Part shown: positions 1 through 62,045 of the stretch, in pieces
How positions within the stretch are numbered: the stretch's first letter is position 1
How the letters are laid out: every line of letters begins with the position of its first letter
NCBI GenBank assembly: GCA_959598745.1
Contig: CAUGFN010000001.1
Span: 3,713-67,712, forward strand
Reading direction: 5' to 3'
DNA: 64,000 nt
Source: an uncultured Eubacteriales bacterium
GTDB taxonomy: Bacteria; Bacillota; Clostridia; TANB77; UBA1234
Notes under the pieces: generated by a model
Database searches by the model: none
What the model saw: the letters and a program-made list of their open reading frames with translations, nothing else
What the model was told of the DNA's origin: nothing
Translations under genes and position numbers: made by a program

Positions 1-2388
1 CCAGGTATCGACCACGCAAGTATCGCAACAGAGGCAAAAATAGTTGAACAAATGCGTAAAGAGGGTATTTCAAAAGAAGACATAGGAAGAGATGGATTCT
101 TAGAAAGAGCATGGGCTTGGAAAGAAAAATATGGTGGAACAATTTTAAATCAGCTTCGTAAAATGGGTGTTTCTTGTGATTGGTCTAGAGTTAGTTTCAC
201 AATGGATGAACATTTGACAAAAGCAGTAAAGAAAGTTTTTGTTGATTTATACAATAAAGGCTTAATTTATAAAGGCGAGAGAATGATAAACTGGTGTCCT
301 AAATGTTTGACTTCTATTTCTGATGCGGAAGTTGAATACGAAGAAGAGGCTGGTCATTTATGGCACATAAGATATGATGCACCAGATAAAAGCTATTCTA
401 TAATTGTTGCTACAACAAGACCTGAGACAATGCTTGGAGATACAGCAATAGCAGTACATCCAGATGATGAAAGATACAAAGATATTGTTGGAAAAACAGT
501 TGTACTTCCAATAATGAATAAAGAAATTCCAATAATTGCAGATACATATGTAGAGAAAGAATTCGGAACAGGTGCCGTTAAAATAACTCCAGCACACGAT
601 CCAAATGACTTTGAAGTAGGCTTGCGTCACAACTTAGAGGTTATAAAAGTATTTACAGAAGACGCTCATATGAATGGTTTAGTTGCTAAGTACGAAGGAA
701 TGGATAGATTAACAGCTAGAAAAGCAATTGTTGAAGATTTAGAGAAATTAGGATGCCTAGTAAAAACAGAAAATTACACACATAATGTTGGAAAATGTTA
801 TAGATGTCATGAGACAGTTGAGCCAGCAGTTTCAAATCAATGGTTTGTGAGCATGAAAGAACTTGCAAAGCCAGCAAATGAAGCTGTTAGAAATGGTGAG
901 ATGAAATTTATACCCGAGAGATTCGATAAAATCTATTTCTCATGGATGGATAATGTTAGAGATTGGTGTATATCTAGACAATTATGGTGGGGACACAGAA
1001 TACCAGCATATTATTGTGATGATTGCGGAGAAATGGTTGTATCTGAAACAGACGTTACAACATGTCCAAAATGTGGCGGAAAAATGAGACAAGATGAAGA
1101 TACACTAGACACATGGTTTAGCTCTGCGTTATGGCCATTTGCAACACTTGGTTGGCCGGAAAAAACAAAGGATTTTGAAAAGTTCTTCCCAACAGATGTA
1201 TTAGTAACAGGTTACGATATAATATTCTTCTGGGTTGCTAGAATGTTATTCTCTAGTATCGAAAATACAGGAAAGCCACCATTTAAAGAGGTTTTAATCC
1301 ATGGATTGGTAAGAGATGAGCAAGGTAGAAAAATGTCAAAATCATTGGGAAATGGTGTAAATCCACTAGATGTTATAGATAAGTATGGTGCGGATTCATT
1401 TAGATATGCATTAGTACAAGGAACAACACCAGGTAATGATACAAGATATTTGCCAGACAAGGTAGAAGCTGGTAGAAACTTTGCAAATAAGCTTTGGAAT
1501 GCGTCAAGATTTGCAATGATGAATTTTGGAGAAGATGAATTAGTTCATGATGAAAGTAAAATGACAATTGAAGATAAATGGATAATATCTAAAGCTAATA
1601 GAACTGTAAAAGAAGTTACAGAGGCAATGGATAAATATGATTTTGGTATAGCAATTCAAAAAATAATGGACTTTACGAGAGATGAGCTTTGTGACTGGTA
1701 TATAGAGATGATTAAGCCAAGACTTTACGACATGACAAACGAAACAAGAAGCGAGGCTTTATATACAATAAACGAGATATTAAAAATTTCGCTTAAATTA
1801 TTGCATCCATTTATGCCATTTATAACAGAAGAAATATATATGAAATTAGATCATAGCGATGAAAGCATAATGATTTCAAAGTGGCCTGAATATAAGGCTG
1901 AAAACGATTATAAGGCAGAAGAAAACGATGTTGAGCTAATAAAAGAAATTATCAAAAATATAAGAAATATCCGTGCTAATATGAATGTTGTACCATCAAG
2001 AAAAGCAAGTTTGATTTTTGTTACAGAAAATGAAAAGGTAATTGAAGAGGGAAGAGGATTTATTGAAAAATTAGCATATGCAGATAAAATAACAATACAA
2101 AAAGATAAAACAGGAATCGCAGATAATGCAGTTTCAATAGCAGTTCCAGGAATAGAAATATATATTCCATTTAATGAATTAGTAGATATTAGTGCCGAAA
2201 TAGAAAGACTTGAAAAAGAAAAGTTAACATATCAAAATGAAATAAACAGAGTAGAAAAAATGCTATCAAATGAAGGATTTGTTGCAAAGGCACCAGCAGC
2301 AAAAATAGAAGAAGAAAAGAATAAAAAAATAAAATATCAAGAATTACTTGCAAAAACAGAAGAAAGAATAAATGCTTTAAAGGCATAG
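1..2388 (+). CDS. valS: valine--tRNA ligase, 5'-truncated at window edge
   Basis: Long ORF (ORF track 52..2388, reading frame open to base 1); KMSKS motif (KMSKSLGN), C-terminal coiled-coil tail and zinc-knuckle CPKC...CPKCGG typical of ValRS. Confidence 0.93.
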   Translation, partial: PGIDHASIATEAKIVEQMRKEGISKEDIGRDGFLERAWAWKEKYGGTILNQLRKMGVSCDWSRVSFTMDEHLTKAVKKVFVDLYNKGLIYKGERMINWCPKCLTSISDAEVEYEEEAGHLWHIRYDAPDKSYSIIVATTRPETMLGDTAIAVHPDDERYKDIVGKTVVLPIMNKEIPIIADTYVEKEFGTGAVKITPAHDPNDFEVGLRHNLEVIKVFTEDAHMNGLVAKYEGMDRLTARKAIVEDLEKLGCLVKTENYTHNVGKCYRCHETVEPAVSNQWFVSMKELAKPANEAVRNGEMKFIPERFDKIYFSWMDNVRDWCISRQLWWGHRIPAYYCDDCGEMVVSETDVTTCPKCGGKMRQDEDTLDTWFSSALWPFATLGWPEKTKDFEKFFPTDVLVTGYDIIFFWVARMLFSSIENTGKPPFKEVLIHGLVRDEQGRKMSKSLGNGVNPLDVIDKYGADSFRYALVQGTTPGNDTRYLPDKVEAGRNFANKLWNASRFAMMNFGEDELVHDESKMTIEDKWIISKANRTVKEVTEAMDKYDFGIAIQKIMDFTRDELCDWYIEMIKPRLYDMTNETRSEALYTINEILKISLKLLHPFMPFITEEIYMKLDHSDESIMISKWPEYKAENDYKAEENDVELIKEIIKNIRNIRANMNVVPSRKASLIFVTENEKVIEEGRGFIEKLAYADKITIQKDKTGIADNAVSIAVPGIEIYIPFNELVDISAEIERLEKEKLTYQNEINRVEKMLSNEGFVAKAPAAKIEEEKNKKIKYQELLAKTEERINALKA

Positions 2389-2605: not shown

Positions 2606-2634
2606 TTGACTGCTTTTTGAAAATGTGTTATAAT
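2606..2634 (+). promoter_or_regulatory. Consensus sigma-A promoter: TTGACT - 17 nt - TATAAT
   Basis: TTGACT at 2606-2611 and TATAAT at 2629-2634 with a 17-nt spacer. Sits upstream of the GC-rich small ORF, which has AGGAGG 8 nt before its ATG. Confidence 0.55.
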
Positions 2635-2705
2635 ATAAACACGCACATACTTAATAAAAGCTAGAGGTTTATTCTTCTAGTAAGAATTTTTAGGAGGGCA
2701 TAGTT

Positions 2706-2933
2706 ATGTGTAATCCATATGAGGTCAATCGTTTTAAAGGTGCAAGAAGTCGGAAGTTTGTGGTAAGCGGTTTGCCGTTCAAGTATCCCGACATCGTCGA
2801 CCTTATCGAGAAGGCCCGATGTGAGTGTATCGAAGAGGGGAACACCAGTAAACGCGAGGAGCTGTACAAGTTCTTTTGCATTGATGGTGACTTTCCAAAG
2901 GCGGAGTTCGAAAGGCTTTGGCCGCAAGGCTAG
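2706..2933 (+). CDS. Small GC-rich ORFan (75 aa) with perfect RBS; may instead, or also, be a structured sRNA
   Basis: AGGAGG-N8-ATG, own consensus promoter, intrinsic terminator directly after the TAG stop. About 50% GC with G/C-rich third codon positions in a ~30% GC genome. No family recognised. Confidence 0.4.
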   Translation: MCNPYEVNRFKGARSRKFVVSGLPFKYPDIVDLIEKARCECIEEGNTSKREELYKFFCIDGDFPKAEFERLWPQG

Positions 2934-2958
2934 GCTTATTAGATACGCCGGATGCACC

Positions 2959-2989
2959 TTCCCCCATTTATATGGGGGTTCTTTTTTTA
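2959..2989 (+). terminator. Rho-independent terminator (CCCCCAT...ATGGGGG followed by T-run)
   Basis: Perfect GC-rich stem followed by TTCTTTTTTT immediately after the small-ORF stop codon. Confidence 0.75.
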
Positions 2990-3012
2990 TGATAAAATAA
3001 ATTTATAATAAT

Positions 3013-3040
3013 AAAAAACCTTCCATGCGGAAGGCTTTTT
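3013..3040. terminator. Bidirectional hairpin terminator (AAAAAACCTTCC-ATGC-GGAAGGCTTTTT)
   Basis: A/T runs on both sides of a GC stem, lying between convergent genes. Confidence 0.7.
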
Positions 3041-3056
3041 AAATGATAGAAGTTGA

Positions 3057-3935
3057 TTAAGCACAAAAAATATTCAGTTTATGCATAATCTCATTTTCTT
3101 TGTCAGATAAATCTACTTTTTCAAATGAATGATATTTTTCTTCAAAAAAATCATCCAAAAGAATACAAAAACTACAAAATTCGCCATTTCCCATTTTTTC
3201 ATCGAAATCATCGATGATATTGTCGAATGAGAAAGAAATTATGCTAGTCCAAAACAGATTGAAGTACGCCATTCCATCGCTGTCAAAAGTGACGGAGTCA
3301 ATTTTGTTTGTGTCCAGAATACTTTTTCCATAATATGTTTCAAGTTTATAAATTATTGATCTCTCAAAATTGTCGCTAGAAAAGATTGTATCAAACTGCT
3401 TTGTTTCATCAGTATACTCAGAAATTTTGCCAACTATAAAGAAAGCCAAGTAGTCAGCAAGCATTTCTTCTAATGATGAGCCATACGTTAAATCGTTCCC
3501 TACAAAGCGTGTTACAGCAGAATAATTTGTGCTATCATCATGTGCTTTGCCTGAGAGAGAAAAAGCGTCGTATGGATTCAAAAAGAGAAAGTGTGCAAAT
3601 TCGTGAGCAATTACATATGCTATGTACTTTGTTGAATCATTAGGATTTATAAATAGTTTAATCTCAATAGCGTTTGAACAAGCATCGTTTGTGCAAGAGC
3701 CAATAGACCTCGAAAATGCTATTGGAGAGATAGAGACTTTAAGCTCGGATAATTTGCTCTGAAAAACGAAAGCATTTTCAAGGGAGTTGATGTACTCAAG
3801 AATCACTTTATTTACAATATCTTTCGCAAACTTCACATTTTCTTTTTGGACTTCAAAGTTTTTAAACAAGGTATTAACCTTCCTTTCATTTTTTATTAAA
3901 TAATATTCCGAGATAGTATTATACCAAAAAGTCAA
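3057..3935 (-). CDS. Hypothetical protein with HExxH zinc-metallopeptidase motif (HEFAH), 292 aa
   Basis: ORF track; the motif VIAHEFAHFLF is seen in the translation. Possibly ImmA/IrrE-like, but not confidently assigned. Confidence 0.45.
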   Translation of the reverse strand: MTFWYNTISEYYLIKNERKVNTLFKNFEVQKENVKFAKDIVNKVILEYINSLENAFVFQSKLSELKVSISPIAFSRSIGSCTNDACSNAIEIKLFINPNDSTKYIAYVIAHEFAHFLFLNPYDAFSLSGKAHDDSTNYSAVTRFVGNDLTYGSSLEEMLADYLAFFIVGKISEYTDETKQFDTIFSSDNFERSIIYKLETYYGKSILDTNKIDSVTFDSDGMAYFNLFWTSIISFSFDNIIDDFDEKMGNGEFCSFCILLDDFFEEKYHSFEKVDLSDKENEIMHKLNIFCA

Positions 3936-4088
3936 GCAGAAGTCAATTATGTAAACGAAAAACTTTTAAAAATTAGTTTACTAAATTTTTTGACTTTTAC
4001 CATTATTTGTGATATAATGTAAACGTGCCGTAAGGAAAGGAAAGATTTTCTTACAATAACATAATACGGAAGTTAGGGAGTGATACTG

Positions 4089-4598
4089 ATGTTTAAAGTA
4101 GGAGACAAGATAGTATATCCAATGCATGGTGCAGGAACAATTGAATCTATAGAAGAGCGTGAAATACTAGGAGAAAAACAAAAATATTACATAATGAAGA
4201 TGCCTGTTGGAGACATAAAAGTTATGGTACCAACGAAAAATGCTGAATTAATCGGCGTAAGAGATGTAATCGGTGGAGACGTGGCAGAAAGTGTATTAGA
4301 CGTTCTTAGTGCTATGCCAACGGATATGTCTTCTAATTGGAACAAAAGATATAGAGACAATCAGGACAAGATGAAGAGTGGCGATATATGTGAAGTTGCA
4401 GATGTTGTCAGAAACTTAACTTTCAGACAAAAAGACAAAGGGCTTGCTACTGGCGAGAAAAAGATGCTATCAAATGCAAAACAAATACTTATAAGCGAGC
4501 TAGTTTTGGCTGAAGCTATGACAAAAGAACAAGTTGAAGCCTTGATTGATGAGAAAATAGAAGAAGCGTACAATTCTTCTAAAGACGTGTTAGTTTAA
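4089..4598 (+). CDS. carD: CarD/CdnL family RNA-polymerase-binding transcription factor
   Basis: N-terminal MFKVGDKIVYPMHGAGTIE... is a typical CarD_CdnL_TRCF domain. AGGGAG RBS before the ATG at 4089; consensus promoter TTGACT-17-TGnTATAAT at 3990-4018. Confidence 0.8.
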   Translation: MFKVGDKIVYPMHGAGTIESIEEREILGEKQKYYIMKMPVGDIKVMVPTKNAELIGVRDVIGGDVAESVLDVLSAMPTDMSSNWNKRYRDNQDKMKSGDICEVADVVRNLTFRQKDKGLATGEKKMLSNAKQILISELVLAEAMTKEQVEALIDEKIEEAYNSSKDVLV

Positions 4599-4906
4599 GA
4601 GCGGATTTTTTAAGAATGTAACCTCAAGTTTATATAATTTGAGGTTACATTTTTTTAATTAATTTAAGAGTAACCCCCAGTTATACGGGATAACTATTTT
4701 ATGTATAAATAAGCTTTTTTAAAATAATTTTCATGTTTGGTTCTTTTTTAGCAACTAACCATATTATTACACCTGAGATTATAAACTTTCTGCTTGTTAA
4801 TTGTAATTGATATGTTTGTATAAAATGTATTCGCTATATTTAATCTTGTAATTTTTTTTATAAAATATATAATATATCTTATATACTAATATAAGGAGAG
4901 GATTAC

Positions 4907-5413
4907 ATGTCAGAGATAGTTTATGATGATAATGGTAAAATATTGGAAGGAACTTTGATAAAATATTATGAAGATGGCAAGATATTGTCTGAGACACCAT
5001 ATAAAAATGGAATGATTAACGGAACAGTTGTTGAATATTATTACAGTGGAGTTGTAAGTAGTAAGAGCGAATATGTAGATGATGTACTAAATGGAACAAC
5101 ATATGTATATTATAATTCTGGCGTTGTTTCGGAAGAAATACCGTATAGAAATGGAAGAATTAATGGTATTAAAAAGAGATTTTTTGAAAGCGGAGCAATT
5201 GCGGAAGAAGCTAGTTATTCAAGGGATATTTTGGATGGCGAGGTAAAAACATATGATTTAAACGGAAATGTAATAGATACAAAATATTTTAGAAAAGGAG
5301 AAACAATAGAAAAAGAGGATGTTGGAAAATTGAGAGCACAACTAGAAAAAGAAAAGGAAGAAAAGACAAAGATAGAATATTTAAATGATGAAGAGATGAA
5401 AAGATTGCTATAA
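4907..5413 (+). CDS. MORN-repeat / YwqK-like repeat protein, 168 aa
   Basis: Repeated Y..G......Y.NG.ING motifs are visible in the translation. Confidence 0.5.
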   Translation: MSEIVYDDNGKILEGTLIKYYEDGKILSETPYKNGMINGTVVEYYYSGVVSSKSEYVDDVLNGTTYVYYNSGVVSEEIPYRNGRINGIKKRFFESGAIAEEASYSRDILDGEVKTYDLNGNVIDTKYFRKGETIEKEDVGKLRAQLEKEKEEKTKIEYLNDEEMKRLL

Positions 5414-5586
5414 TAACTGCTTTTATGCATATTTGAACTAACATATTAACTATTGACAACGTAAGCTTTTATAGATAAAATAGAATGGCAGTGAAATATA
5501 TTATTCAAAAGATTGTTGTGATTTTGAGTATTGGGTAGATACTTTAAATAATAATATATTGAACATTGAAAAGTAAATAAAGGGAG

Positions 5587-7179
5587 GTGGACGATATTTT
5601 TACTAGAGAAATGATTGTCCCTTCTATTATTGTCGCTATTATTACAGCAGCGATTGTAATTTTTATTTTCTTTTTGCTAGAAAAAAATAAGACCAAAAAA
5701 GGGTTATCTAAAATCAAAAATGCCGAAGAAGAAGCTGAAAGATTAAAGAATGAAGCTAGAAACAAGGCATCAGAGATTGTTAGAATAGCTGAGGCAGAAA
5801 GGAAAGAAAAAGTTATTTTAGCTAAAGAAGAAATACAAAAAGAACGTGGAGATTTAGAAGGCGAAATAAGAGAGAGAAGGGCAGAAGTAGCAAAGCAAGA
5901 GAAGAGATTACTTCAAAAAGAAGAGACTTTAGATAAAAAAATCGAAAAATTAGAAGGAAAAGAAATTGAGTTATTGGATAAGGAACGAAAATTAGAAGAA
6001 GAAAAGGACGAACTTGGAAAATTTAAGGACAAGCAATTGGCTGAATTAGAAAGAATTTCTGGTTTATCACAAGAAGAAGCGAAAAAATATCTTCTAAGCA
6101 CATTAAATGAATCTTTGGCACATGATCAAGCTGTTATGATAAAAGAGTTTGAGAATAAGACAAAGGAAGAAGCTAACAAGAAAGCGAAAGAGTTAATTAC
6201 TTATGCAGTTCAAAAGTGTGCGGCTGACCATACATCTGAAACTACAGTTTCTGTTGTACCTTTGCCAAGCGATGATATGAAAGGTAGAATTATCGGAAGG
6301 GAAGGTAGAAATATCAAAACTCTAGAAACTCTAACTGGAATTGATTTGATTATTGATGATACACCAGAGGCTGTTATTTTATCAAGCTTCGATCCTATAA
6401 GACGTGAGGTTGCTAGAATAGCTCTTGAAAACCTAGTTACAGATGGTAGAATTCATCCTGCTAGAATAGAAGAGATGGTGGAAAAAGCCAAAGAAGAACT
6501 TGAAATTATAATCAAAGAAGAAGGCGAAGAAGCATCTATGGAAACTGGTGTTATAGGCTTACATCCAGATGTAATTAAGCTAATTGGCAAGTTAAAATAT
6601 AGAACAAGTTATGGACAAAATGTATTAAATCACTCTATAGAAGTTTCGCAATTGGCTGGTATTATGGCAGAAGAGTTAGGATTTGATCCTAAGCTTGCAA
6701 AAAGAGCGGGATTACTTCATGATATTGGTAAAGCAATAGACCATGAAATAGAAGGTACACATGTTGAAATTGGTGTTGACATCCTTAGAAAATATAAGGA
6801 AAGTAATGCTGTTATCAACGCAGTACAAGCTCACCATGGTGATGTTGAGCCATTAACAATGGAGGCTGTCTTAGTTCAAGCAGCAGATGCAATCTCTGCT
6901 TCGAGACCAGGTGCTAGAAGAGAAACTTTAGAGAATTATATTAAGAGACTTGAAAAATTAGAAGAAATTGCTGATTCTTTTGAAGGCGTTGAAAAATCTT
7001 TTGCAATTCAAGCAGGTCGTGAAGTTAGAATAATTGTAAAACCTGAAACTATTGATGAAGACAAGATGACAATTATGGCAAGAGACATTGCAAAGAGAAT
7101 AGAAGAAGAAATGGATTATCCAGGACAAATAAAAGTAAATGTTATAAGAGAGACTAGAGCAATAGAATACGCAAAATAA
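5587..7179 (+). CDS. rny: Ribonuclease Y
   Basis: N-terminal TM helix, long coiled coil, KH domain ([11 protein letters not shown]) and HD domain (LLHDIGK...HH). Start codon uncertain (GTG at 5587 or ATG at 5611). Confidence 0.9.
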
Positions 7180-7302
7180 AAAAGTAGGAGATGAACTTAG
7201 AAGGTTTGTCTCCTTTTCTTTTTATTTAAATTATGATATACTTTGAAAGGTAGGAAAATACTCTATTAAAAGTATTTAGTATGAATGTTAAGGAGGCTAA
7301 TT

Positions 7303-8079
7303 ATGAATTTTTTAATTATTGGAGATATCGTTGGAAAAGTTGGCATCGAAGCTGTTAAGAAAAACATATCAAAACTAAAAGAAAAATATAATATAGATTT
7401 TACAATAGCTAATGGTGAGAATTCAGCAGATGGTATGGGAATTACTAAGAATATAGTAAATGATCTATATGCATGTGGGGTTGATGCAATAACAATGGGA
7501 AATCACACATGGGGAAAGAAGGATATTTTCTCATTTATAGATGAAGATGAACGATTAGTTAGACCAGCAAATTATGCAGAAGGAGTATGCGGAAAAGGCA
7601 GTATATTACTACACTCAAAAGACAAAAAGATTGGTATTATAAATTTAATTGGTAGAGTGGATATGGGCGGAAGTTATGATAGTCCTTTTGTTGCTGCTGA
7701 TAAAGAGGTTGATAAGCTAAAGAAAAATGGTGCAGATATAATTATTGTTGATTTTCATGCTGAAGCTACTGCAGAAAAAATTGCACTTGCATATTATTTG
7801 AAAGACAAAGTTAATATTTTTTTTGGAACTCATACTCATGTACAAACAGCAGACGAGAAGATATATGATACAGGAATGGGATACATAACAGACGTTGGTA
7901 TGACGGGACCTAAGAATTCAATTATAGGTATGAATATCGAAGCAGCAATGAAAAGATTTTTGACACAAATTCCGGAAAGATATTCTTGTGCAGAAGGACC
8001 ATTTATGTTAAATGGCGTTGTATTTAACTTTGATGAAATAAGTAAAAAGGTAACGGATATTACAAGAATAAGTCTATAA
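7303..8079 (+). CDS. ymdB: YmdB-like metallophosphoesterase (TIGR00282 family)
   Basis: MNFLIIGDIVGK...GNHTWGKK motifs; conserved position after rny; AAGGAGG RBS. Confidence 0.85.
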   Translation: MNFLIIGDIVGKVGIEAVKKNISKLKEKYNIDFTIANGENSADGMGITKNIVNDLYACGVDAITMGNHTWGKKDIFSFIDEDERLVRPANYAEGVCGKGSILLHSKDKKIGIINLIGRVDMGGSYDSPFVAADKEVDKLKKNGADIIIVDFHAEATAEKIALAYYLKDKVNIFFGTHTHVQTADEKIYDTGMGYITDVGMTGPKNSIIGMNIEAAMKRFLTQIPERYSCAEGPFMLNGVVFNFDEISKKVTDITRISL

Positions 8080-8208
8080 AGGCCTAAATATAGCGATTTT
8101 TGTCAATCGATTCTCTAAGTTTTTATTGGAAAATACTGGCTTTTTATATAAAACTTTATATAATTTATAGTGTAGTAAGTAATCAAAATAAAAACAAGGA
8201 GGAATAAC

Positions 8209-8469
8209 ATGGATATTTTAAAAATTTCAACAAAATCAAATCCAAATTCAGTAGCAGGTGCTATAGCAGGATTAATTAAAGAGAAAGGAAGAGCAGAGAT
8301 GCAAGCAATTGGAGCAGGGGCATTAAATCAAGCTATAAAAGCAATAGCTATAGCAAGAGGATTTGTTGCACCATCTGGTGTTGATTTAATTTGCATACCA
8401 GCTTTTACAGAGGTTAAAATCGAGGACGAGGAAAGAACTGGAATAAAATTAGCAGTGGAGCCTAGATAA
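8209..8469 (+). CDS. spoVS: Stage V sporulation protein S
   Basis: 86-aa product MDILKISTKSNPNSVAGAIAG... matches SpoVS. The rny-ymdB-spoVS order is conserved. Confidence 0.9.
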   Translation: MDILKISTKSNPNSVAGAIAGLIKEKGRAEMQAIGAGALNQAIKAIAIARGFVAPSGVDLICIPAFTEVKIEDEERTGIKLAVEPR

Positions 8470-8487
8470 AAATAAATATATACATAT

Positions 8488-10161: not shown

Positions 10162-10274
10162 TGTGAGACGCGAAATAGCGTATATATCATGCTTTATATT
10201 AAACGTCTTGATGATGAATTTTAAAGTTCTAAAATAATTTTCTGAATAAACGAAAAATTATTCTTGACATTTTA

Positions 10275-10286
10275 GAACGAGTGTTC
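10275..10286 (+). promoter_or_regulatory. LexA (DinR) Cheo box GAACGAGTGTTC in the recA promoter spacer
   Basis: AGAACGAGTGTTCT matches the Firmicute SOS box CGAACNNNNGTTCG. It lies between TTGACA (10265-10270) and TATTAT (10288-10293). Confidence 0.65.
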
Positions 10287-10332
10287 TATTATTTAGTTGT
10301 AGCCAAAAGAGAAGTAATAAAGGAGGTTTATC

Positions 10333-11376
10333 ATGACTGATAATAATGAAAAGAAAAAAGCTTTAGAAGCGGCACTTGGACAGATAGAAAAGCAATTTGG
10401 AAAAGGTGCGGTTATGAAATTGGGAGAAAACGCACAAATGAACATAGATGTTATACCAACTGGTGCATTAAGTTTAGATATAGCACTTGGTATCGGTGGC
10501 GTTCCAAGAGGAAGAATTGTTGAAGTATTTGGTCCAGAATCTTCTGGTAAAACAACTGTTGCTTTACACATGATTGCGGAAGCACAAAAAATGGGTGGAG
10601 AGGCTGCTTTTATAGATGCTGAACATGCATTAGATCCAGTATATGCTAAACACTTAGGCGTTGATATAGATAATTTAATTGTTTCTCAACCAGATACAGG
10701 TGAGCAGGCTTTAGAAATTGCAGAGGCTTTGGTTAGAAGTGGTGCTATAGATATTTTGGTTGTTGACTCTGTTGCTGCATTAGTTCCTAAAGCAGAAATA
10801 GATGGAGATATGGGAGATTCTCATGTTGGACTTCAAGCTAGACTTATGTCACAAGCTCTTAGAAAACTTGCAGGTGTACTTAATAAATCTAATACAGTTG
10901 CAATATTTATAAATCAGTTACGTGAAAAGGTTGGAGTAATGTTTGGAAATCCAGAAGTGACTCCTGGCGGTAGAGCTCTTAAGTTTTATTCTTCAGTTAG
11001 ATTAGATGTAAGAAGAGTAGAAGCTTTAAAGATAAATAACGAGGTTGTTGGTAATAGAACTAGAGTTAAAGTTGTAAAGAATAAAGTCGCTCCTCCATTT
11101 AGAGAAGCTGAATTTGATATAGTTTATGGAGAGGGTATTTCAAAAGAAGGAAATGTATTAGATATAGGTGTTAACTTAAACATCGTTGAAAAAGCAGGAG
11201 CTTGGTTCAGTTATAATGGTACAAGAATAGGACAAGGTAGAGAAAATGCAAAACAATATTTAAAAGACAATCCTACTGTTTGTGCAGAAATTGAAACTAA
11301 GATTAGAGAAAATTATAACGATGCTTTTGATAAAAGTTTAAGTGAAAGTATAGAAAAAATATCAGAAGATGAATAA
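10333..11376 (+). CDS. recA: Recombinase RecA
   Basis: Walker [10 protein letters not shown] and the full-length conserved RecA sequence. Confidence 0.96.
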
Positions 11377-11428
11377 AGAGAATATAAGACGGGCCATACC
11401 CGTCTTATGTTTTATGGGAGGTATGCAA

Positions 11429-11866
11429 ATGATTGTTGATGATAAAATTATGAAATATATTGTGTTCAAAAAAAGAACAGAAGAAGAACTGAAAAATAAA
11501 TGTAAAATGCTAAAATACGATGATGAAACCATAGAGCAGATTGTGGAATATTTGAAAGAAAACGGATATATAAATGATGAGGTTTATGTAGAAAAGTATA
11601 TAAAAAACGTAATGAGATTAAAAGCTTGCTCAATAAGAGAAATAAAAATTGATCTTATGAAAAGAGGGATAAATGAAGATTTAATAGATAAATATATAAC
11701 AGATGACTTGGAGAGTTTTGAGGAAAAGTCAGCTAAAGAATTGGCAATAAAAAAATCTAAAATTGGTGATATAGAAAAAGTAAAAAGATATCTTTTAAAT
11801 AAGGGTTTTTCATATACCAATGTGGCTAAAGCAATTGACAATTTAGCTGATTTAGATGATAATTAA
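11429..11866 (+). CDS. recX: Regulatory protein RecX
   Basis: Directly downstream of recA. GGGAGG RBS 7 nt before the ATG at 11429; a hairpin plus U-run at 11392-11415 precedes it. Size and composition fit RecX. Confidence 0.75.
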   Translation: MIVDDKIMKYIVFKKRTEEELKNKCKMLKYDDETIEQIVEYLKENGYINDEVYVEKYIKNVMRLKACSIREIKIDLMKRGINEDLIDKYITDDLESFEEKSAKELAIKKSKIGDIEKVKRYLLNKGFSYTNVAKAIDNLADLDDN

Positions 11867-11904
11867 TACGTACATAAAATATTTTTATAGGAGGAAATTT
11901 GAAG

Positions 11905-12783
11905 ATGAATAACATATTACAAAAGGCTTCAGAGGCAGCTACATATATTAATTCTAAAATTGATTGTAGACCTAAAATTGCAATTATATTAGGTTCAGGA
12001 CTTGGTTCATTGGCAGATGAAGTTTATGAAAACAGAGTAGAGATTCCTTATGGTGAGATTCCAAACTTTCCTTTATCAAAAGTTGAAGGACATAACAATA
12101 AATTAATCATCGGAAAGATTTATGATAAAGACGTTATAATAATGCAAGGAAGATTTCATTACTATGAAGGCTATGAGATGAATGAAGTTGCTTTTCCTAT
12201 AAGAGTATTAGCGTTACTTGGCATAGAAAGTTTAATAATATCTAATGCTGCGGGTGGAATAAATAAAAAATTCAAGCCTCAAGATTTGATGATTATAAAA
12301 GACCACATAAACATATGTGGAGAATCACCACTTAGAGGAACAAATGAAGATGCGTTTGGAACAAGATTTCCTAGCATGACGAATGCTTATTCAAAGAGAC
12401 TTATAAATCTTGCCAAAGACGTTGCATCACTTAAGGCCTATGGAGATATGCTTGATAAGAAGGCAATGAGGATTGCAAAAGATAGTGATGATTTAGCGAT
12501 TGATTTAAAAGAAGGTGTGTATGCTTTTATGCCAGGTCCACAGTATGAAACAACGGCAGAAATAAAAATGCTTGAAATTTTAGGAGCAGATGCTGTTGGA
12601 ATGTCAACAGTGCCAGAGGTTATTGCAGCATCACATTCAGGAATAGAAGTGCTAGGGATTTCTTGCATTACTAATGTTGTTGGTGGCAATGAAGTTCCTT
12701 CACATGAAGAAGTTGTTGAAAATGCTGCACAAGTTGAAGAAAAATTCAAAACATTAATTATGCGAATTATAATGAAAATGTAG
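11905..12783 (+). CDS. punA: Purine nucleoside phosphorylase (PNP/MTAP family 2)
   Basis: Motifs IAIILGSGLG and GMSTVPEV, typical of PunA-type PNP. Confidence 0.75.
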   Translation: MNNILQKASEAATYINSKIDCRPKIAIILGSGLGSLADEVYENRVEIPYGEIPNFPLSKVEGHNNKLIIGKIYDKDVIIMQGRFHYYEGYEMNEVAFPIRVLALLGIESLIISNAAGGINKKFKPQDLMIIKDHINICGESPLRGTNEDAFGTRFPSMTNAYSKRLINLAKDVASLKAYGDMLDKKAMRIAKDSDDLAIDLKEGVYAFMPGPQYETTAEIKMLEILGADAVGMSTVPEVIAASHSGIEVLGISCITNVVGGNEVPSHEEVVENAAQVEEKFKTLIMRIIMKM

Positions 12784-12798
12784 TGCTACGGGGGAAAA

Positions 12799-13536
12799 AT
12801 GGAACAATACACGATAAAGATGGAGAACTTTGAGGGCCCACTAGATTTACTTTGCCATTTGATTGACAAGAACAAAATGGATATATGTGATATAAAGATT
12901 TGTGAAATAACAGATCAATATTTAGAGTATCTAAATGAGATGCATCAAATGAATTTGGATGTTACAAGTGAATTTATAGTGATGGCTTCAAGATTAATAT
13001 ATTTAAAATCAAAATCACTTCTTCCGACTGTTGTTGAAGATGATGAGGAAGAAATTGATTTGGTACAAATGCTTATAGAATATAAAAAATATAAAGAGTA
13101 TACAAAAACATTAAAGGAACGTATTGAAGTATATGGAGGCAAATTTTATAAATTGCCTGATAAAATAGAGTTGCCAAAAGGTAAATTGGAGGGCAGTTTT
13201 GATAGCAATTTAATTCCGAGCATATATAATGATTTTGTAACGAAGGAGGAGGCTAAAAGAAATTTAAGAGCAGATAATATAAATAGACTTGCTACAAGCG
13301 AAAAGTACACGATAAAGAATAAGATAAGAGAGATATTAAAAGAATTATGGAAAAAGTCAAGCTTTGTATTTAATAAGCTTTTTAATGTGAAAAAGAAGCC
13401 GAAGGCAGAAGTTGTTACAGCTTTTTTAAGCCTTTTAGAATTATCAAAAATGAGTAGAATAAAAATTACGCAAGACTCTTTATTCGGAGATATAAATGTT
13501 ACAAAAATAAAGAAAAATAGGGGTGAAGAATCTTGA
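12799..13536 (+). CDS. scpA: Segregation and condensation protein A
   Basis: ENFEGPLDLLCHLIDKNKMDI is the ScpA signature. Confidence 0.85.
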   Translation: MEQYTIKMENFEGPLDLLCHLIDKNKMDICDIKICEITDQYLEYLNEMHQMNLDVTSEFIVMASRLIYLKSKSLLPTVVEDDEEEIDLVQMLIEYKKYKEYTKTLKERIEVYGGKFYKLPDKIELPKGKLEGSFDSNLIPSIYNDFVTKEEAKRNLRADNINRLATSEKYTIKNKIREILKELWKKSSFVFNKLFNVKKKPKAEVVTAFLSLLELSKMSRIKITQDSLFGDINVTKIKKNRGEES

Positions 13537-14402
13537 AAAATGGAATAGCTTTTAGTGGCGGAGGCTTGAAAATTTTTGCACATATAGGTGCATTAAAAGC
13601 GTTAGAGGAACTTGGAGTTGAATTTGATTATGTCTCAGGAACTAGTTCCGGAAGTGTGATTGCAGCTTTTTATGCATTAGGAATAAAACCTAATGATATG
13701 TTTAAAATAATTTCTAGCAGATATAAAGATATAGCTAAAATTAATGTTAGAAATGTGTTTGGTTCAGCCATTAAATCAATTGCTAAAAATGAACTAAAAT
13801 TAAAATCGTTGATAAATGGAAGCAAAATAGAAAATGCAATGCGAAATATGTTAATAGAAGAAAAAATCACAAAAACTGATATGAAAGACCTGGATAAAAA
13901 ACTTGCAATTGTTTCGTGTGATACAGTAAGCACAAAAGAAGTTATATTTTTATCTGATGATTTTAATATCAAAAATACAGAAAGAACTGACTATATAATT
14001 GGTGCTGAAATTTCAAAAGCTATTAGAGCAAGCATGTCATTTCCAGGAGTGCTTACACCTTGTGACTTTGAAAAGTATAATTTAATTGATGGTGGAACAG
14101 TAAATAATTTGCCAACAAAAGTTTTGAAAGAAATGGGAGCAGAAAAAGTACTTGGTGTCTGTTTTGAATTGAATTCATATGAACCCGAGGATGATATATT
14201 AAGTGTTGCTTTAAGGGCTGCAGATATATTTTCTATTTTGAATATGTCAGTTGCAAAAGAATATTTAAATTTATTGCTAGAACTTTCAATTCCGGATACA
14301 GGGTTATTGGACATAAAAGATGTGAATCATGTTATTGATTTAGGCTATAACGAAACTATGGCTCAGAAAGAATTAATTTTAAGAGAATTTAAAAATTATT
14401 AG
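13533..14402 (+). CDS. Patatin-like phospholipase
   Basis: GGGLKIFAHIGALKALEE...GTSSGS (GxSxG lipase motif) and a DGG motif. Confidence 0.8.
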   Translation: MKNGIAFSGGGLKIFAHIGALKALEELGVEFDYVSGTSSGSVIAAFYALGIKPNDMFKIISSRYKDIAKINVRNVFGSAIKSIAKNELKLKSLINGSKIENAMRNMLIEEKITKTDMKDLDKKLAIVSCDTVSTKEVIFLSDDFNIKNTERTDYIIGAEISKAIRASMSFPGVLTPCDFEKYNLIDGGTVNNLPTKVLKEMGAEKVLGVCFELNSYEPEDDILSVALRAADIFSILNMSVAKEYLNLLLELSIPDTGLLDIKDVNHVIDLGYNETMAQKELILREFKNY

Positions 14403-14443
14403 AAAGGAGTTCATAAACTTTATATAGTTTATGTAATAATGAT

Positions 14444-15196
14444 ATGAAAAAAATAATTAAATTGGTAATAGCAATTATAGTTGCACTTGCAATAATTAGT
14501 GGGATAATGATTTTAGTAGATTGTAGCTCTATAAAAAGTGAAAAAGAGCCTATATTTGCAAAGATGTCAGCAGCCTTAAATGACGGTGGTACTGTCATAT
14601 ATACAGGTTTTGGTTATAAGATAATAGATTTTCATATGCTAAATGGATATGATGAAACAAAAGTTGGTACTTTGTTTACAAAACCAGAAGATTTTAGTGA
14701 GGAATACAAAAAATATGATGTAAATCTAATACCAAAAGATGATGATAAAAACCAAAATAATGGTGATAATAAAATAAACAGTGGAGATACTGAAAAAGAA
14801 AGCGGAGACAAAAATCAAGTAAGTGGCGATACAACTATAAGTAGCGGAGAACATGAAGTTAATAGTGGAGATAACGCTACAGTAAGTGGAGAGAAAAATA
14901 ACAGCATTGAACAACCAACTCAAAGTGGCGATTTAGAGAAATCAGGTGATAAAAAGGAAGTTGAGACGTTCTTTATAGGAAGCATTATTGGAATAAAAGG
15001 AGATATTATGCTTGTTACACCTTTAGAGGATCAAGAAATACTTAAATCTTCAGATATAATTAGTTTTTCAATAAAAAATGAAAACTCAAAAGATTATATA
15101 ATTGGACAAAAGGTAAAAGTAACATATATTGGAGATGTAAAAGAAACTTATCCTGCTGGAGTAGATGCTATCAGTGTTGACATAGTAAATAATTAA
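14444..15196 (+). CDS. Membrane-anchored/secreted protein with SGD/SGE low-complexity repeats
   Basis: N-terminal hydrophobic segment. Repeated NSGD/VSGD/SSGE/VSGE units in the middle of the protein. Confidence 0.4.
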   Translation: MKKIIKLVIAIIVALAIISGIMILVDCSSIKSEKEPIFAKMSAALNDGGTVIYTGFGYKIIDFHMLNGYDETKVGTLFTKPEDFSEEYKKYDVNLIPKDDDKNQNNGDNKINSGDTEKESGDKNQVSGDTTISSGEHEVNSGDNATVSGEKNNSIEQPTQSGDLEKSGDKKEVETFFIGSIIGIKGDIMLVTPLEDQEILKSSDIISFSIKNENSKDYIIGQKVKVTYIGDVKETYPAGVDAISVDIVNN

Positions 15197-15267
15197 AATA
15201 AATAGAATATTTTTATATAAAAAAGCCCATATTATTTTTAAAGCATAAATTAAGGAGGTAAAATAAT

Positions 15268-15777
15268 ATGAGCGAGCATCCTATTGAGGGACTTATGAAT
15301 ACTGCTATGAACAACTTAAGAGATATGATAGATGTAAATACTATTATAGGAGATTCTATTGAAACTGCAAACGGTACTGTTATAATACCGATATCAAAAG
15401 TCTCATTTGGTTTTGCGGCAGGTGGCAGTGAATTTAATATGAGTACATTAGAAGAGACAAAACGAAGTGGTTCAGAAGAGGAAACCAAGCATGCACTTCC
15501 TTTTGGTGGAGGTAGTGGAGCTGGTGTGCATATTGAACCAATTGGTTTCTTAGTGATAACAGAAGGCTCAACAAAAATGATACCAGTTGACCATTGCAAT
15601 GCAATTGATAAATTATTGGATTATGTGCCTGACGTTATAGATAAAATAACACAATTGTTTGATAGAGATAGAACATATACGTATGAGTTTTATGAAGATG
15701 AAAATGGTAACACTCATGAAGAATGTTCATGCGGTTGTGGAGAAGATGTTGAAGAGAATGAAAACGAAAATGAATAG
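15268..15777 (+). CDS. ytfJ: GerW/YtfJ family sporulation protein with acidic Cys-rich C-terminal tail
   Basis: MSEHPIEGLMNTAMNNLRDMIDVNTIIGD... resembles YtfJ/GerW. The tail CSCGCGEDVEENENENE is unusual. Confidence 0.7.
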   Translation: MSEHPIEGLMNTAMNNLRDMIDVNTIIGDSIETANGTVIIPISKVSFGFAAGGSEFNMSTLEETKRSGSEEETKHALPFGGGSGAGVHIEPIGFLVITEGSTKMIPVDHCNAIDKLLDYVPDVIDKITQLFDRDRTYTYEFYEDENGNTHEECSCGCGEDVEENENENE

Positions 15778-28629: not shown

Positions 28630-29037
28630 TTGGAAACAACAGCACAGCGGTTAGCAGACATTGAGGAAGTATGGTTAGAAAACGCAGGAGATGTGGCATG
28701 TATTTCGAACCAGTGTGGTATAAGCCAAGGGATGGTGTATTACACAATGCGGAAATATTGCTATAAAAATGGGAAGGACTATCAAAGCTATCTTAGACAT
28801 CCGCATAAACCACATAAACCATATGAACGGCATGTTTATAAGACGCAAAAAAGTGCATCATTAGGAAGAATACAAAGGAAAGAGTACATTCTGACGAAAA
28901 CAAGCGAAGAAATGTCTGAGCAAGTAAGTGAGCTACTTAAAAGTTCGAGTAGTAAAGACATTCTTGCAGGAATTGACTTGCTCATCAGGATGGTTGAAAA
29001 GGAGATTTGTAGAAATGGGAACAACATTGTACATTAA
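28630..29037 (+). CDS. GC-rich ORFan 1 (135 aa, TTG start, HTH-like segment)
   Basis: GAAGGAGG RBS; HTH-like ISNQCGISQGMVYYTMRKY; repeated HKPHKPY. Roughly 41% GC against ~30% background. Confidence 0.45.
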   Translation: METTAQRLADIEEVWLENAGDVACISNQCGISQGMVYYTMRKYCYKNGKDYQSYLRHPHKPHKPYERHVYKTQKSASLGRIQRKEYILTKTSEEMSEQVSELLKSSSSKDILAGIDLLIRMVEKEICRNGNNIVH

Positions 29038-29908
29038 TGGTCGTTCTAAGGAATTAAGGTCCATCAGAGAGTACGTCAAAGCAGGATATACAAAGACGCA
29101 ACTCGCCAACGAGTTTAACTGCTCGGCAGAAACGTTTCTCGAAGCTTTGAAGGAAAAGACTGGTGTCAGATTCAAGGAGTACAACCGTGATTTGGAGCGA
29201 AATGAAAGTCGGTATAAGAGAAAAACAGGTCTTGAGATAAAGAGAAAAGAGGTAAATAGTATGTCAGAAACAACTGAAATCATTGAAAGCGAGCCGAATG
29301 TGAGTTACGAAAAGGAAAGTGCTCCGACGTTCCGGAATCGCGAAAGCGAACTAAACGAGCAGGCGGAGGAAAGCAAAAAAAATCTTTCTGAGATGAAAGA
29401 AAAACTTGAAAGAGCCAAAGTAAATCTCACAGAAATACAAAATGAAAAAGAAGAGATTCGAAACAAGGCTAACCAATGCAATGAAGAGTACGTGAGACTA
29501 AAAGTGGAGTTAGAAGAACTCAGAAAGAGTTTTGCCGAAGTTACTGCGCGATTAGAGACTCGTAAGGATGATGTCGAATCTTTGGAACATAATATAAGCG
29601 AAGAAGAAGAAAAGCTCTACAAAATAAACAAAGAGCTTGAAAGCTACAAGACGGTTGAAATCTATTGTGATGAGACCGGGTTCCACATCTCAAACGTGGA
29701 ATATATGCCTGACGATGATACCATCGATGAAATTCTTTGCAAACTGCGTAAAGATCCTAGGATGGAGCAGTATATGTTCAAAACGGTCCAGAACGTTGCT
29801 AAAATAAAGGCAGCCATCGCACTTGTGGAGATTGTCGGATTGGTGGAGTATTCTGTACAGCTCGAAAAGTGCAGTAAGGATGTTCAGGACGCATACTCTT
29901 GCGATTGA
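29015..29908 (+). CDS. GC-rich ORFan 2 (about 297 aa: N-terminal HTH-like domain, long coiled coil, C-terminal Cys-containing domain)
   Basis: AAGGAG-N9-ATG at 29015, overlapping the 3' end of ORFan 1. Coiled-coil heptads; weak hairpin after the stop. Confidence 0.45.
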   Translation: MGTTLYINGRSKELRSIREYVKAGYTKTQLANEFNCSAETFLEALKEKTGVRFKEYNRDLERNESRYKRKTGLEIKRKEVNSMSETTEIIESEPNVSYEKESAPTFRNRESELNEQAEESKKNLSEMKEKLERAKVNLTEIQNEKEEIRNKANQCNEEYVRLKVELEELRKSFAEVTARLETRKDDVESLEHNISEEEEKLYKINKELESYKTVEIYCDETGFHISNVEYMPDDDTIDEILCKLRKDPRMEQYMFKTVQNVAKIKAAIALVEIVGLVEYSVQLEKCSKDVQDAYSCD

Positions 29909-54269: not shown

Positions 54270-54650
54270 TTATTTTGCAAAATCGTATGGATGGCGCTGG
54301 TGAATTTCTTCGTTGATGATTGCGAGGAGTGTGGATTTGCAATTAAGATTGCTATCCTTAATTGCCTTGATGGTTCCGAGAAGTTCGGCATACTCTTCAG
54401 TCTGGCAAATTGCTTCGCGGTCGCTCAAGTAGTCAAGTAACTTCTTGTCTATAGTGTACGAAACTCTATCGTGTCCATAAACAAGCAATTCTAGAGCTCT
54501 TACATTCTCCTTCGGAGAACAAGTGAAGTTGTATCTCCATTCATGGGCGTCTTCAGACCAACAGGAATTTTCGTCAGCCACCCTCATTGTTGCATTTCTT
54601 CCATCCTTAACCATTACAATGGTTCGCTTTAAATTTGCCAACATAGACAA
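54270..54650 (-). CDS. GC-richer ORFan (126 aa), minus strand
   Basis: AGGAGG-N8-ATG on the minus strand; promoter TTGATT-17-TATAAT; bidirectional terminator at about 54205-54235. Roughly 42% GC. Confidence 0.4.
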   Translation of the reverse strand: MSMLANLKRTIVMVKDGRNATMRVADENSCWSEDAHEWRYNFTCSPKENVRALELLVYGHDRVSYTIDKKLLDYLSDREAICQTEEYAELLGTIKAIKDSNLNCKSTLLAIINEEIHQRHPYDFAK

Positions 54651-61802: not shown

Positions 61803-61847
61803 TAAAAATTGTTGACAACAAATAATAAATGTTGTAGAATAATAAAC

Positions 61848-61961
61848 GTGGTGAGGATATAGACGAGGTCACACCTGTTCCCATACCGAACACAGAAGTT
61901 AAGCTCGTATGTAGCCGAAGATAGTAATGGGTCGCTCATTGTGAAAATAGGAACTTGCCGC
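61848..61961 (+). rRNA. rrf: 5S ribosomal RNA (orphan; no 16S/23S nearby in this window)
   Basis: GGTGAGGATATAGACGAGGTCACACCTGTTCCCATACCGAACACAGAAGTTAAGCTCG... matches the conserved 5S core. Own promoter TTGACA-17-TAGAAT at 61812-61840. Confidence 0.75.
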
Positions 61962-61969
61962 TTTTATAT

Positions 61970-62045
61970 TCCTCTTTAGCTCAGTTGGTAGAGCGTCCGG
62001 CTGTTAACCGGCAGGTCGTAGGTTCGAGTCCTACAAGGGGAGCCA
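61970..62045 (+). tRNA. tRNA-Asn (GTT), CCA encoded
   Basis: Cloverleaf: acceptor TCCTCTT/AAGGGGA, D arm GCTC-AGTTGGTA-GAGC, anticodon loop CTGTTAA, T arm GTAGG-TTCGAGT-CCTAC, discriminator G plus CCA. Confidence 0.85.

Follow-up and report, generated by a model that had tools for sequence, protein, structure and literature searches.

Does the GC-rich stretch that follows valS in this DNA of an uncultured gut bacterium belong to a small protein gene or to a structured RNA? The stretch lies near the beginning of the window, by which we mean the whole piece of 64,000 nucleotides that was analyzed, and it forms a self-contained promoter-to-terminator unit of about 348 nt, in which a promoter, an AGGAGG Shine-Dalgarno sequence, an open reading frame (ORF) of 75 codons and a strong terminator follow one another (Table 1). 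All four parts are present where the original prediction had placed them, and the promoter it had praised is indeed near-consensus, with 11 of 12 hexamer positions matching and an extended -10 element in addition (promoter scan). The same prediction had wavered between a small protein gene and a structured small RNA (sRNA), leaning to a closed RNA; the protein gene is borne out by ten sequences from eight lineages, and the closed RNA is not. The reading that we favor, and regard as probable, is that of a stand-alone single-gene transcription unit for a real small protein, the mRNA of which is GC-rich, folded and probably selected for its structure. The protein is a new, fast-evolving orphan of about 75 residues from an uncultured human-gut Firmicute.

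As judged from the pattern of substitutions, the 75-codon ORF is a real coding sequence under purifying selection on amino acids. Its frame is the only one without an internal stop in all ten orthologous sequences, and pairs within the two subfamilies described below differ mainly at third codon positions, the differences at positions 1/2/3 being 14/17/42 between L090 and L091, 10/10/24 between L088 and L095, 6/6/13 between L095 and L096, and 1/1/4 between the window and L001 (L numbers are our own handles). The uncorrected ratio of nonsynonymous to synonymous differences (pN/pS) is 0.18-0.6 in within-subfamily pairs, with pS of 0.4-0.8; because pS is near saturation, corrected ratios would be lower. 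It is because a single frame is open throughout and because substitutions fall mainly on third positions, with pN/pS below 1, that we take the ORF to be coding. Where residues of the shared C-terminal motif are replaced, the changes are conservative (K/R, F/Y, D/E, L/V), and the AGGAGG located 8 nt before the ATG would support translation.

A purely non-coding structured RNA, with the 75-codon ORF as a chance frame in GC-rich sequence, is very improbable, although several observations could be cited for it. As the original prediction had noted, the body is about 50% GC (0.43-0.52 across 2700-2950) and open in several frames on both strands of the window copy; the minus strand has ORFs of 98, 63, and 54 aa, and the plus strand has one of 59 aa besides the 75-aa frame. 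A single-sequence search with the 75-aa protein found same-species copies only, and thus no homolog outside the clade, among 5.8 billion plus 1.84 billion proteins. The exact protein is recorded from ENA and Logan assemblies and absent from protein sets derived from NCBI, in which rny, carD, and recA products of the same organism are present. This reading is contradicted by the codon-position pattern of substitutions, with pN/pS well below 1 in every within-subfamily pair, and it leaves aside the proper spacing of the start codon from the Shine-Dalgarno sequence, the conservative replacements in the C-terminal motif, and the confident compact fold given by AlphaFold2 (AF2). As for the other strand, the in-register antisense frame is open in seven sequences because A-ending codons are rare in the sense frame, and it is broken in L001, which belongs to the window's own lineage, and in L091 and L101; the antisense 98-aa ORF (2661-2957), whose frame is broken in the same three sequences, was rejected as a gene.

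The ENA and Logan assemblies contain the identical 75-aa protein in 98 index blocks, and all of the 23 contigs that were read carry it. The gene order at the six places shown is valS, small gene, convergent 270-aa gene, carD, MORN-repeat gene, rny, ymdB, and spoVS. Diverged relatives were reached by way of homologs of the convergent 270-aa neighbor (78, 43, and 42% identity), on whose contigs the corresponding place is taken by a unit of like design, and a profile of these ORFs yielded six more proteins and their contigs, including the 75-kb L092 with identical gene order. The same-design unit is thus found between valS and the convergent gene of a protein with an HExxH motif in eight diverged lineages, which form two subfamilies: A (window type, L105, L088/L092, L095, and L096) and B (L090, L091, L099, and L101). 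Proteins of both subfamilies have 75-77 residues. Those of subfamily A, the window protein included, start with MCN and end with REEL..F(F/Y)C..G.FP...F(E/D)(R/Q)LWP, and those of subfamily B start with MKK.N..GYATNHK and end with GGKEEF.SFYQQIAP.EVLERVWKHVHG.

The family is found only in a narrow clade of uncultured gut bacteria, and one related contig is labeled "human gut metagenome". A valS-anchored scan of GTDB species genomes gave at least 80 loci, with a best valS identity of 60%, and the unit was present in none of the loci listed, which were checked by nhmmer, by DNA profiles, and by the protein profile on six-frame translations. A scan of JGI metagenomes added no sequences to those already found, and blastn of the unit against phage and plasmid collections gave no match. 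The small gene is also systematically under-annotated; gene callers missed the small ORF in two contigs of subfamily B. Together with its convergent neighbor, it is the fastest-diverging gene of the locus. Between the window and L092, identity is 93% for carD, 90% for rny, 70% for the MORN-repeat protein, 78% for the 270-aa neighbor, and 37.5% for the small protein; between the window and L089/L090, the corresponding values are 92, 87, 64, and 43%, and for the small protein 29%, in a local alignment of only 28 columns.

The architecture of the unit is kept across the family. In L088, L090, L091, L096, and L101, sequences read individually, we found a -35 element (TTGACT, TTGAAA, or TTGTAA) with a 17-nt spacer in each case, TGnTATAAT, a hairpin located some 20 nt from the 5' end of the transcript, an ORF of the same length, and a CCCCA...UGGGG terminator with (C)UUCU. 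The AGGAGG is kept in subfamily A, and a weaker GGAAAG(G) takes its place in subfamily B. The CCCCA...UGGGG stem followed by (C)UUCU is the only non-coding sequence block, besides the promoter, that is common to both subfamilies. Terminator-like sites number four in the region, against 0.6 expected from shuffled sequences. Since a terminator of its own closes the unit and the following gene lies on the opposite strand, the unit is not a cis-regulatory leader or riboswitch, and on this point we agree with the original prediction.

The 3' end of subfamily B is more elaborate than that of the window copy, which lacks the nested structure. There a further hairpin, the AACCA loop of which (GACCA in L101) is conserved, is nested within the terminator stem CCCCAGU...ACUGGGG; the structure is located at 1099-1170 on the minus strand of L090, at 1057-1128 on the minus strand of L091, and in the 3' untranslated regions (UTRs) of L099 and L101 (A2 columns 323-373). 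The nested hairpin shows two compensatory pair changes, CUUCAU/AUGAAG against CUCUAU/AUAGAG.

The base composition of the unit is abnormal and conserved. The window is AT-rich (31.4% GC overall) and the unit is its GC maximum, with 0.525 per 200 nt against a mean of 0.314 and a standard deviation of 0.048; the flanks have 0.21-0.30, and the region of the 5S rRNA and tRNA genes reaches 0.49, below the maximum of the unit. In the small ORF, GC contents at the first and second codon positions are normal (0.50 and 0.37), and the excess is at the third position (GC3), with 0.58 in the window copy and 0.56, 0.43, and 0.53 in orthologs, against 0.21 for valS, 0.14 for recA, 0.18 for dnaK, and 0.13 for hpf. 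The preference is opposite to that of housekeeping genes in the same genome (GC3 of 0.13-0.3), and because synonymous sites have largely turned over between the lineages, we consider it to be maintained and not merely inherited. Horizontal transfer was rejected as the cause of the GC content, GC3 being kept in syntenic orthologs with near-saturated synonymous sites, and so was translational codon optimization, the GC3 of recA, dnaK, and hpf being only 0.13-0.18.

Three other regions of the window contain ORFs with raised GC3 (0.36-0.46 against about 0.2 for the genome), located at 54270-54650 on the minus strand and at 59370-60038 and 28630-29908 on the plus strand. None matches a Pfam family, 28928-29908 giving coiled-coil noise, and they may be foreign or lineage-specific genes.

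The folding of the transcript was compared with that of dinucleotide shuffles. For whole transcripts, z scores of the minimum free energy (MFE) are -2.9/-3.1 for the window, -2.4/-2.7 for L088, and -2.3 for L096 in subfamily A, and -4.8/-4.6 for L090, -6.4/-5.9 for L091, -4.0 for L099, and -3.5 for L101 in subfamily B, against -0.08 +/- 0.99 for 14 control segments of other genes; antisense strands are mostly weaker (-0.7 for the window). Permutation of synonymous codons, which keeps the protein and the codon content, gives z scores of -1.9, -1.9, -3.6, and -3.1. When MFE structures are predicted independently, shared pairs amount to 37% against 22% in a codon-permuted control for subfamily B and to 21% against 8% for subfamily A, in a comparison whose control removes inherited sequence identity as well. 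What is robust across the whole family is that the excess of GC3 is kept and that folding is, in general, more stable than expected.

These two properties bear on the view that this is a small-protein gene of the ordinary kind, the RNA structure of which is not under selection. On that view the GC content would come, for example, from foreign origin, from slow-translation codons, or from recombination-linked GC bias, and the folding stability would simply follow the GC content. Several findings fit it: the GC excess is limited to the coding sequence (CDS) and the terminator, the absolute stability (-66 to -79 kcal/mol per about 230 nt, against -30 to -45 for other genes) is largely compositional, other GC3-rich orphan ORFs exist in the window (54270-54650 and 59370-60038), a putative recombination breakpoint lies at the 3' end of valS, CDS-only z scores of subfamily A are not significant, and MFE pairs of the window are poorly kept in close variants. 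We nevertheless hold this view to be quite unlikely, because GC3 of 0.43-0.58 is maintained in syntenic orthologs with near-saturated synonymous sites, which is no fading trace of a transfer, and because every lineage has negative z scores against composition-preserving shuffles and synonymous permutations, those of subfamily B being strongly negative. Compensatory pairs and runs without synonymous change also speak against it, and optimization would predict no GC3 of 0.58 where highly expressed genes use AT-ending codons (0.14 in recA and 0.18 in dnaK).

The unit matches no known RNA family. A scan of 2606-2990 with Rfam 15 gave no family at the gathering score, the matches with E-values up to 10 being low-scoring chance matches driven by the terminator and hairpins, and six orthologous loci gave no match either. 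The families covered include signal recognition particle RNA, RNase P RNA, tmRNA, and 6S RNA, which the original prediction could not match either, as well as raiA, OLE, and known sRNAs. The unit is no known RNA and no purely non-coding RNA. Signs of conservation beyond the protein level are seen nevertheless, so that the idea of a functional RNA survives in part, as a property of the mRNA or as a possible second function, carried by the excess of folding stability, the conserved GC3, and the compensatory pairs of subfamily B. In that subfamily, the structure predicted by RNAalifold has 88 pairs, and 94.6% of its cells are paired. Both partners have changed in 10 of these pairs, whereas column shuffles yield 4.0 +/- 1.5 (none of 500 shuffles attains 10) and slid controls yield 1-4; the alignment comprises four sequences and also served to derive the structure. 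Three of the 10 pairs are in one hairpin of the CDS (columns 162-181), one with a Phe-to-Ala codon change, and two are in the hairpin nested in the terminator loop. Codon runs without synonymous change are KAQAEGCDREE (11 codons) in subfamily A and EVLER (5 codons) in subfamily B, the latter coinciding with a GUACUC-GAAA-GAGUAU hairpin. Between the window and its variant L105 of about 90% identity, the UTRs show a single substitution and a single indel over 120 nt; 1 of 65 positions of the 5' UTR differs, against about 16% of synonymous sites in the CDS (hand count from the alignment).

The closed form of the RNA, in which the 5' and 3' ends were supposed to pair as AAGCUAG/CUAGGCUU, did not survive. 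We reject this closing helix because in the predicted fold the CUAG segment of its 5' arm belongs to the local 5'-proximal hairpin, and a hairpin is present at the same position in all orthologs, with compensatory changes in subfamily B. An 8-nt long-range repeat (2737-2744/2953-2960) was likewise rejected, not being preserved in L105. The GGCC-GCAA-GGCU hairpin with a GNRA-type loop that the original prediction had named lies at 2920-2931 and is part of the predicted folds; in L105 its loop is changed from GCAA to GUAA, still GNRA, by a substitution that creates an earlier stop. Over the codons of the EE...F(Y/F) motif, which are predicted to pair together in both subfamilies (GAGGAA with UUCUAY), a hairpin is predicted in the window copy and also for the homologous codons of subfamily B (GGKEEFxSFY; columns 220-250).

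Such features invite the proposal of a dual-function RNA, in which one transcript serves both as the message for the small protein and as a base-pairing regulator, a protein-binding RNA, or a sponge, and in which the second role would keep the body GC-rich and folded. The abnormal and conserved GC3, the excess stability, the runs without synonymous change, and the compensatory pairs in the CDS are what an RNA-level function would lead one to expect, hairpins with GNRA tetraloops (GCAA and GAAA) are preserved, and the unit resembles an sRNA gene in standing alone between a strong promoter and a strong terminator. Known dual-function sRNAs leave more non-coding room than is found here, where the ORF of 75-77 aa fills about 65% of the transcript. 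No target, conserved single-stranded seed, or trans partner was identified, no genome-wide search for targets having been made, and no seed common to both subfamilies was seen. DNA profiles of either subfamily miss the other, so that beyond the promoter and the terminator the family has no conserved RNA sequence element in common. A cis role in mRNA stability or translation control explains the structural signals equally well, and we regard a second function as unlikely, established as the class of dual-function RNAs is (PMC12612679 and PMC3526287). It is doubtful that the GC-rich multi-hairpin body serves as a regulator or protein-binding scaffold, with the amino-acid motif and the hairpins constraining each other; the Glu-Glu codons (GAGGAA) predicted to pair with Phe-Tyr codons (UUCUAY) at homologous positions of both subfamilies would be an example of this, and such an RNA could act together with the adjacent co-diverging HExxH protein.

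Returning to a stand-alone gene with a folded, probably structure-selected mRNA, we note several points that weigh against it. The signs of RNA constraint beyond coding are weak in subfamily A and are based on four sequences in subfamily B. CDS-only z scores of subfamily A are -0.15 to -1.8, about half of the substitutions at MFE-paired positions in the window's lineage break the pair (two pairs kept and three broken in L001, four kept and six broken in L105), and the L088 group shows many G-C/G-U alternations and only one doubly compensated pair. A specific conserved fold is consequently plausible for subfamily B and unproven for the window copy. The high GC3 is restricted to the CDS, and its cause could be translational instead of structural. 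The homology between subfamilies A and B is weak, hhalign aligning no more than the 22 C-terminal columns, which occupy equivalent positions (reported probability 5%, P = 0.0075), and their relatedness rests mainly on position and on the common design of the unit. The transcription start near 2641 is placed from the position of the -10 element, and the function of the protein is a guess because it has no detectable relative or fold match.

A course of events compatible with these data may be outlined as follows. A strong, constitutive, near-consensus promoter of sigma-70 (housekeeping) type with an extended -10 element would start transcription at about 2641, and the intrinsic terminator would end it at about 2988, giving an mRNA of about 350 nt. 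Ribonucleases of Firmicutes attack 5' ends and AU-rich single strands, and rny, encoding RNase Y, is located three genes downstream; the hairpin about 20 nt from the 5' end, which is likely a 5' stabilizer of the mRNA, and the compact GC-rich fold probably shield the transcript from 5'-end-dependent and AU-directed ribonucleases, so that it would be long-lived. In subfamily A, initiation may be throttled by base pairing between the extreme 5' end and the region around the start codon, the predicted pairing probability at the AUG being 0.72 for the window and 0.88 for L088; both arms (GCACAUA/UAUGUGU) are invariant in this subfamily and hence give no covariation signal, so that the pairing stands as a prediction only. 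In subfamily B, the region of the weak Shine-Dalgarno sequence tends to pair with the 3' tail in predicted structures. The product would be a soluble protein of about 9 kDa, most likely acting by partner binding, and candidate partners are the co-diverging convergent HExxH protein and, through the basic tail, nucleic acid.

The small protein has a mass of about 8.8 kDa; a candidate peptide from it is EELYKFFCIDGDFPK. Pfam and NCBIfam searches gave nothing meaningful for the 10 members, PADLOC and PHROGs gave chance-level matches only, the best match in a PDB profile search had E = 0.24, and Foldseek against PDB and BFVD gave a best E of about 0.5 or higher. For the window protein, AF2 with an eight-sequence alignment gives a predicted local distance difference test score (pLDDT) of 77 and a predicted template modeling score (pTM) of 0.60, and predicts disorder in residues 1-12, a beta-hairpin at 17-26, and helices at 27-44, 48-59, and 65-71. 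With a target from subfamily B the scores are 73 and 0.59 and the predicted topology is alike (disordered N-terminus, small beta bridge, and three helices), the two runs being not independent, as one alignment was used for both. A charge dipole is found in both subfamilies, the first 28 residues being Gly/Arg-rich with a charge of +2.6 to +7.5 and the remainder having -1 to -5. The proteins are hydrophilic throughout, with a grand average of hydropathy (GRAVY) of -0.41 to -0.87, and have no transmembrane helix. The only family-wide motif, (K/R)EE(L/F)xxF(F/Y)...P...(F/L)(E/D)(R/Q)(L/V)W, lies on the three predicted helices.

In its layout, the unit most resembles the coding sRNAs of Firmicutes, namely SR1/SR1P and SR7/SR7P of Bacillus subtilis and RNAIII/hld of Staphylococcus aureus, which are stand-alone transcripts of a few hundred nucleotides with a small ORF and RNA structure overlapping or flanking it. 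The present unit, known from sequence alone, is not claimed as a member of this class. Both peptide and RNA features of SR1 are reported to be conserved (PMC3526287), SR7P is given as 39 aa (PMC7834092), and proteins of dual-function sRNAs are said to be usually shorter than 50 aa (PMC12310071). Unlike these, the ORF of our unit has 75-77 aa and takes up some two thirds of the transcript, the unit resembles none of them in sequence or by Rfam, and the family is confined to its narrow uncultured gut clade.

The unit is similar also to the "sORF" class of the GC-rich intergenic region (GC-IGR) surveys from the Breaker laboratory (PMC11109978), being a GC-rich island in an AT-rich genome that is apparently intergenic. 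It fits the definition given there (conserved start and stop codons, coding-compatible conservation, and no position to regulate a main ORF), with its frame open in 10/10 sequences and the third-position pattern and pN/pS of 0.18-0.6 described above. The survey lists only three sORF candidates among 4714 IGRs. Unlike a plain sORF, the unit adds signals of folding stability, covariation, and synonymous constraint. A typical "GC island in AT-rich genome" candidate, of the kind usually read as a structured non-coding RNA, is resolved here as an orphan small-protein gene, and it provides a clean natural case of synonymous sites apparently selected for G/C and folding while housekeeping genes use AT-ending codons. 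This makes the unit a convenient test object for the mutual constraints of mRNA structure, stability, and coding, and a candidate dual-function RNA of the human gut microbiota. Its practical importance is limited, as the family is restricted to a narrow uncultured clade and the function is a guess.

Type I toxin mRNAs of Firmicutes (txpA, bsrG, and fst) share with the unit a small ORF, a compact and strongly folded mRNA, a convergent neighboring transcription unit, and possibly, by prediction, a 5' end that occludes the translation start. Unlike the toxins, the protein is hydrophilic without a transmembrane helix and is predicted by AF2 to have a soluble alpha/beta fold, no antisense RNA gene is evident, and the convergent partner is the gene of a 270-aa protein behind a bidirectional terminator. 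We rejected a type I toxin, since the GRAVY values, the basic N-terminus, and the acidic C-terminal domain rule out a hydrophobic membrane peptide.

The 270-aa gene adjoins the small gene at every locus where that flank is visible, and its product diverges in step with the small gene, holding 78 and 43% where carD and rny hold 87-93%. Only four homologs of it were found among 5.8 billion proteins. The protein has the conserved blocks SGK..D.STN and FN.FW.SIISFSF besides an invariant HEFAH motif, and gives weak matches, below the family cut-offs, to SprT-like, Peptidase_M78 (14.9-17.7 bits, cut-off 22), CapP (E = 0.002-0.015), a phage "metallo-protease" PHROG, and PDB 4qhi (MJ1213, deposited as an uncharacterized protein). 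The arrangement recalls pairs of ImmA/IrrE (Peptidase_M78) or CapP with a small repressor (ImmR, DdrO, or CapH), in that a small fast-evolving gene is always beside the gene of an HExxH protein and both diverge far faster than the housekeeping neighbors. Unlike in these pairs, the neighbor scores below all family cut-offs, its matches hardly extending past the zinc-binding motif, searches of the small protein against Pfam, NCBIfam, and known folds gave no helix-turn-helix (HTH) match, and the genes are convergent with separate promoters and terminators, not an operon. An ImmA/IrrE or CapP protease-repressor pair was therefore rejected. HTH-repressor and defense-system readings were set aside likewise, Pfam, NCBIfam, PADLOC, and PHROGs giving no support, and no defense or mobile-element genes are present near the small-gene locus.

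Table 1. Features of the small-gene unit and its surroundings in the window (nt positions; the strand is given as + or -, or as a dot where none applies).
Feature	Position	Strand	Basis or remark
valS, 5'-truncated by the window edge	52..2388	+	Own terminator hairpin at 2484-2528
-35 hexamer TTGACT	2606..2611	+	Promoter scan
Extended -10 element TGTTATAAT	2626..2634	+	Sequence reading and promoter scan
-10 hexamer TATAAT	2629..2634	+	17-nt spacer from TTGACT, TGT directly before
Predicted 5' UTR, about 65 nt	2641..2705	+	Transcription start placed from the -10 position
5'-end segment GCACAUA	2643..2649	+	Predicted to pair with start-codon region 2705-2711 (UAUGUGU)
5'-proximal hairpin GCUAGAGG-UUUAUU-CUUCUAGU	2660..2681	+	MFE and centroid folds
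Shine-Dalgarno AGGAGG	2692..2697	+	8 nt before ATG at 2706
CDS of the 75-aa protein MCNPYEVNRFKGARSRKFVVSGLPFKYPDIVDLIEKARCECIEEGNTSKREELYKFFCIDGDFPKAEFERLWPQG	2706..2933	+	ORF list; stop TAG 2931-2933
Predicted hairpin over REELYKFFC motif codons	2852..2881	+	RNAalifold on A3, columns 246-275; Glu GAGGAG pairs with Phe UUCUUU
Hairpin with GCAA (GNRA) tetraloop	2912..2938	+	Core GGCC-GCAA-GGCU 2920-2931, across the stop TAG
Intrinsic terminator CCCCCATTTATATGGGGG plus TTCTTTTTTT	2961..2988	+	7-bp stem with 5 G-C pairs, then UUCUUUUUUU
Bidirectional terminator between unit and convergent gene	3012..3041	.	Context
Convergent 270-aa gene, invariant HEFAH motif, putative Zn metallopeptidase	3057..3869	-	Weak profile matches

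Some minor observations concern the surroundings of the unit. Positions 1-2403 of the window and 6858-9259 of L092 carry valS with 98.9% identity in DNA and 99.6% in protein, positions 2962-8482 and 10264-15563 of the same two sequences have only 81-83% DNA identity, and the segment 2404-2961 with the small-gene unit has no detectable DNA similarity. This jump in identity suggests either that recombination or transfer took place recently, the breakpoint being at the valS 3' end, or that the assembly is chimeric. In L096, the spacer from valS to the unit (110-640) is longer and partly GC-rich, and a called ORF of 75 aa in it (110-337, GC 0.43) is unrelated to the small protein. In L090 (1640-1810, plus strand) and L091 (1565-1735, plus strand), an extremely hydrophobic ORF of 56 aa lies on the strand opposite to the small gene, between valS (a ygjV-like gene in L091) and the unit. 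It has the pattern MFSLL.G..S.I.......LFIL...FL..ILKK.LS.IL.... and no counterpart in the window, and could be a small membrane protein or a toxin-like peptide.

Far from the unit, the window contains a 5S rRNA gene followed 6 nt later by a tRNA gene (61847-62042, plus strand). The 5S gene is apparently an orphan, no 16S or 23S rRNA match being present within the window, and the pair directly follows an ORF of 546 aa (60162-61802) that looks like an aminoacyl-tRNA synthetase.

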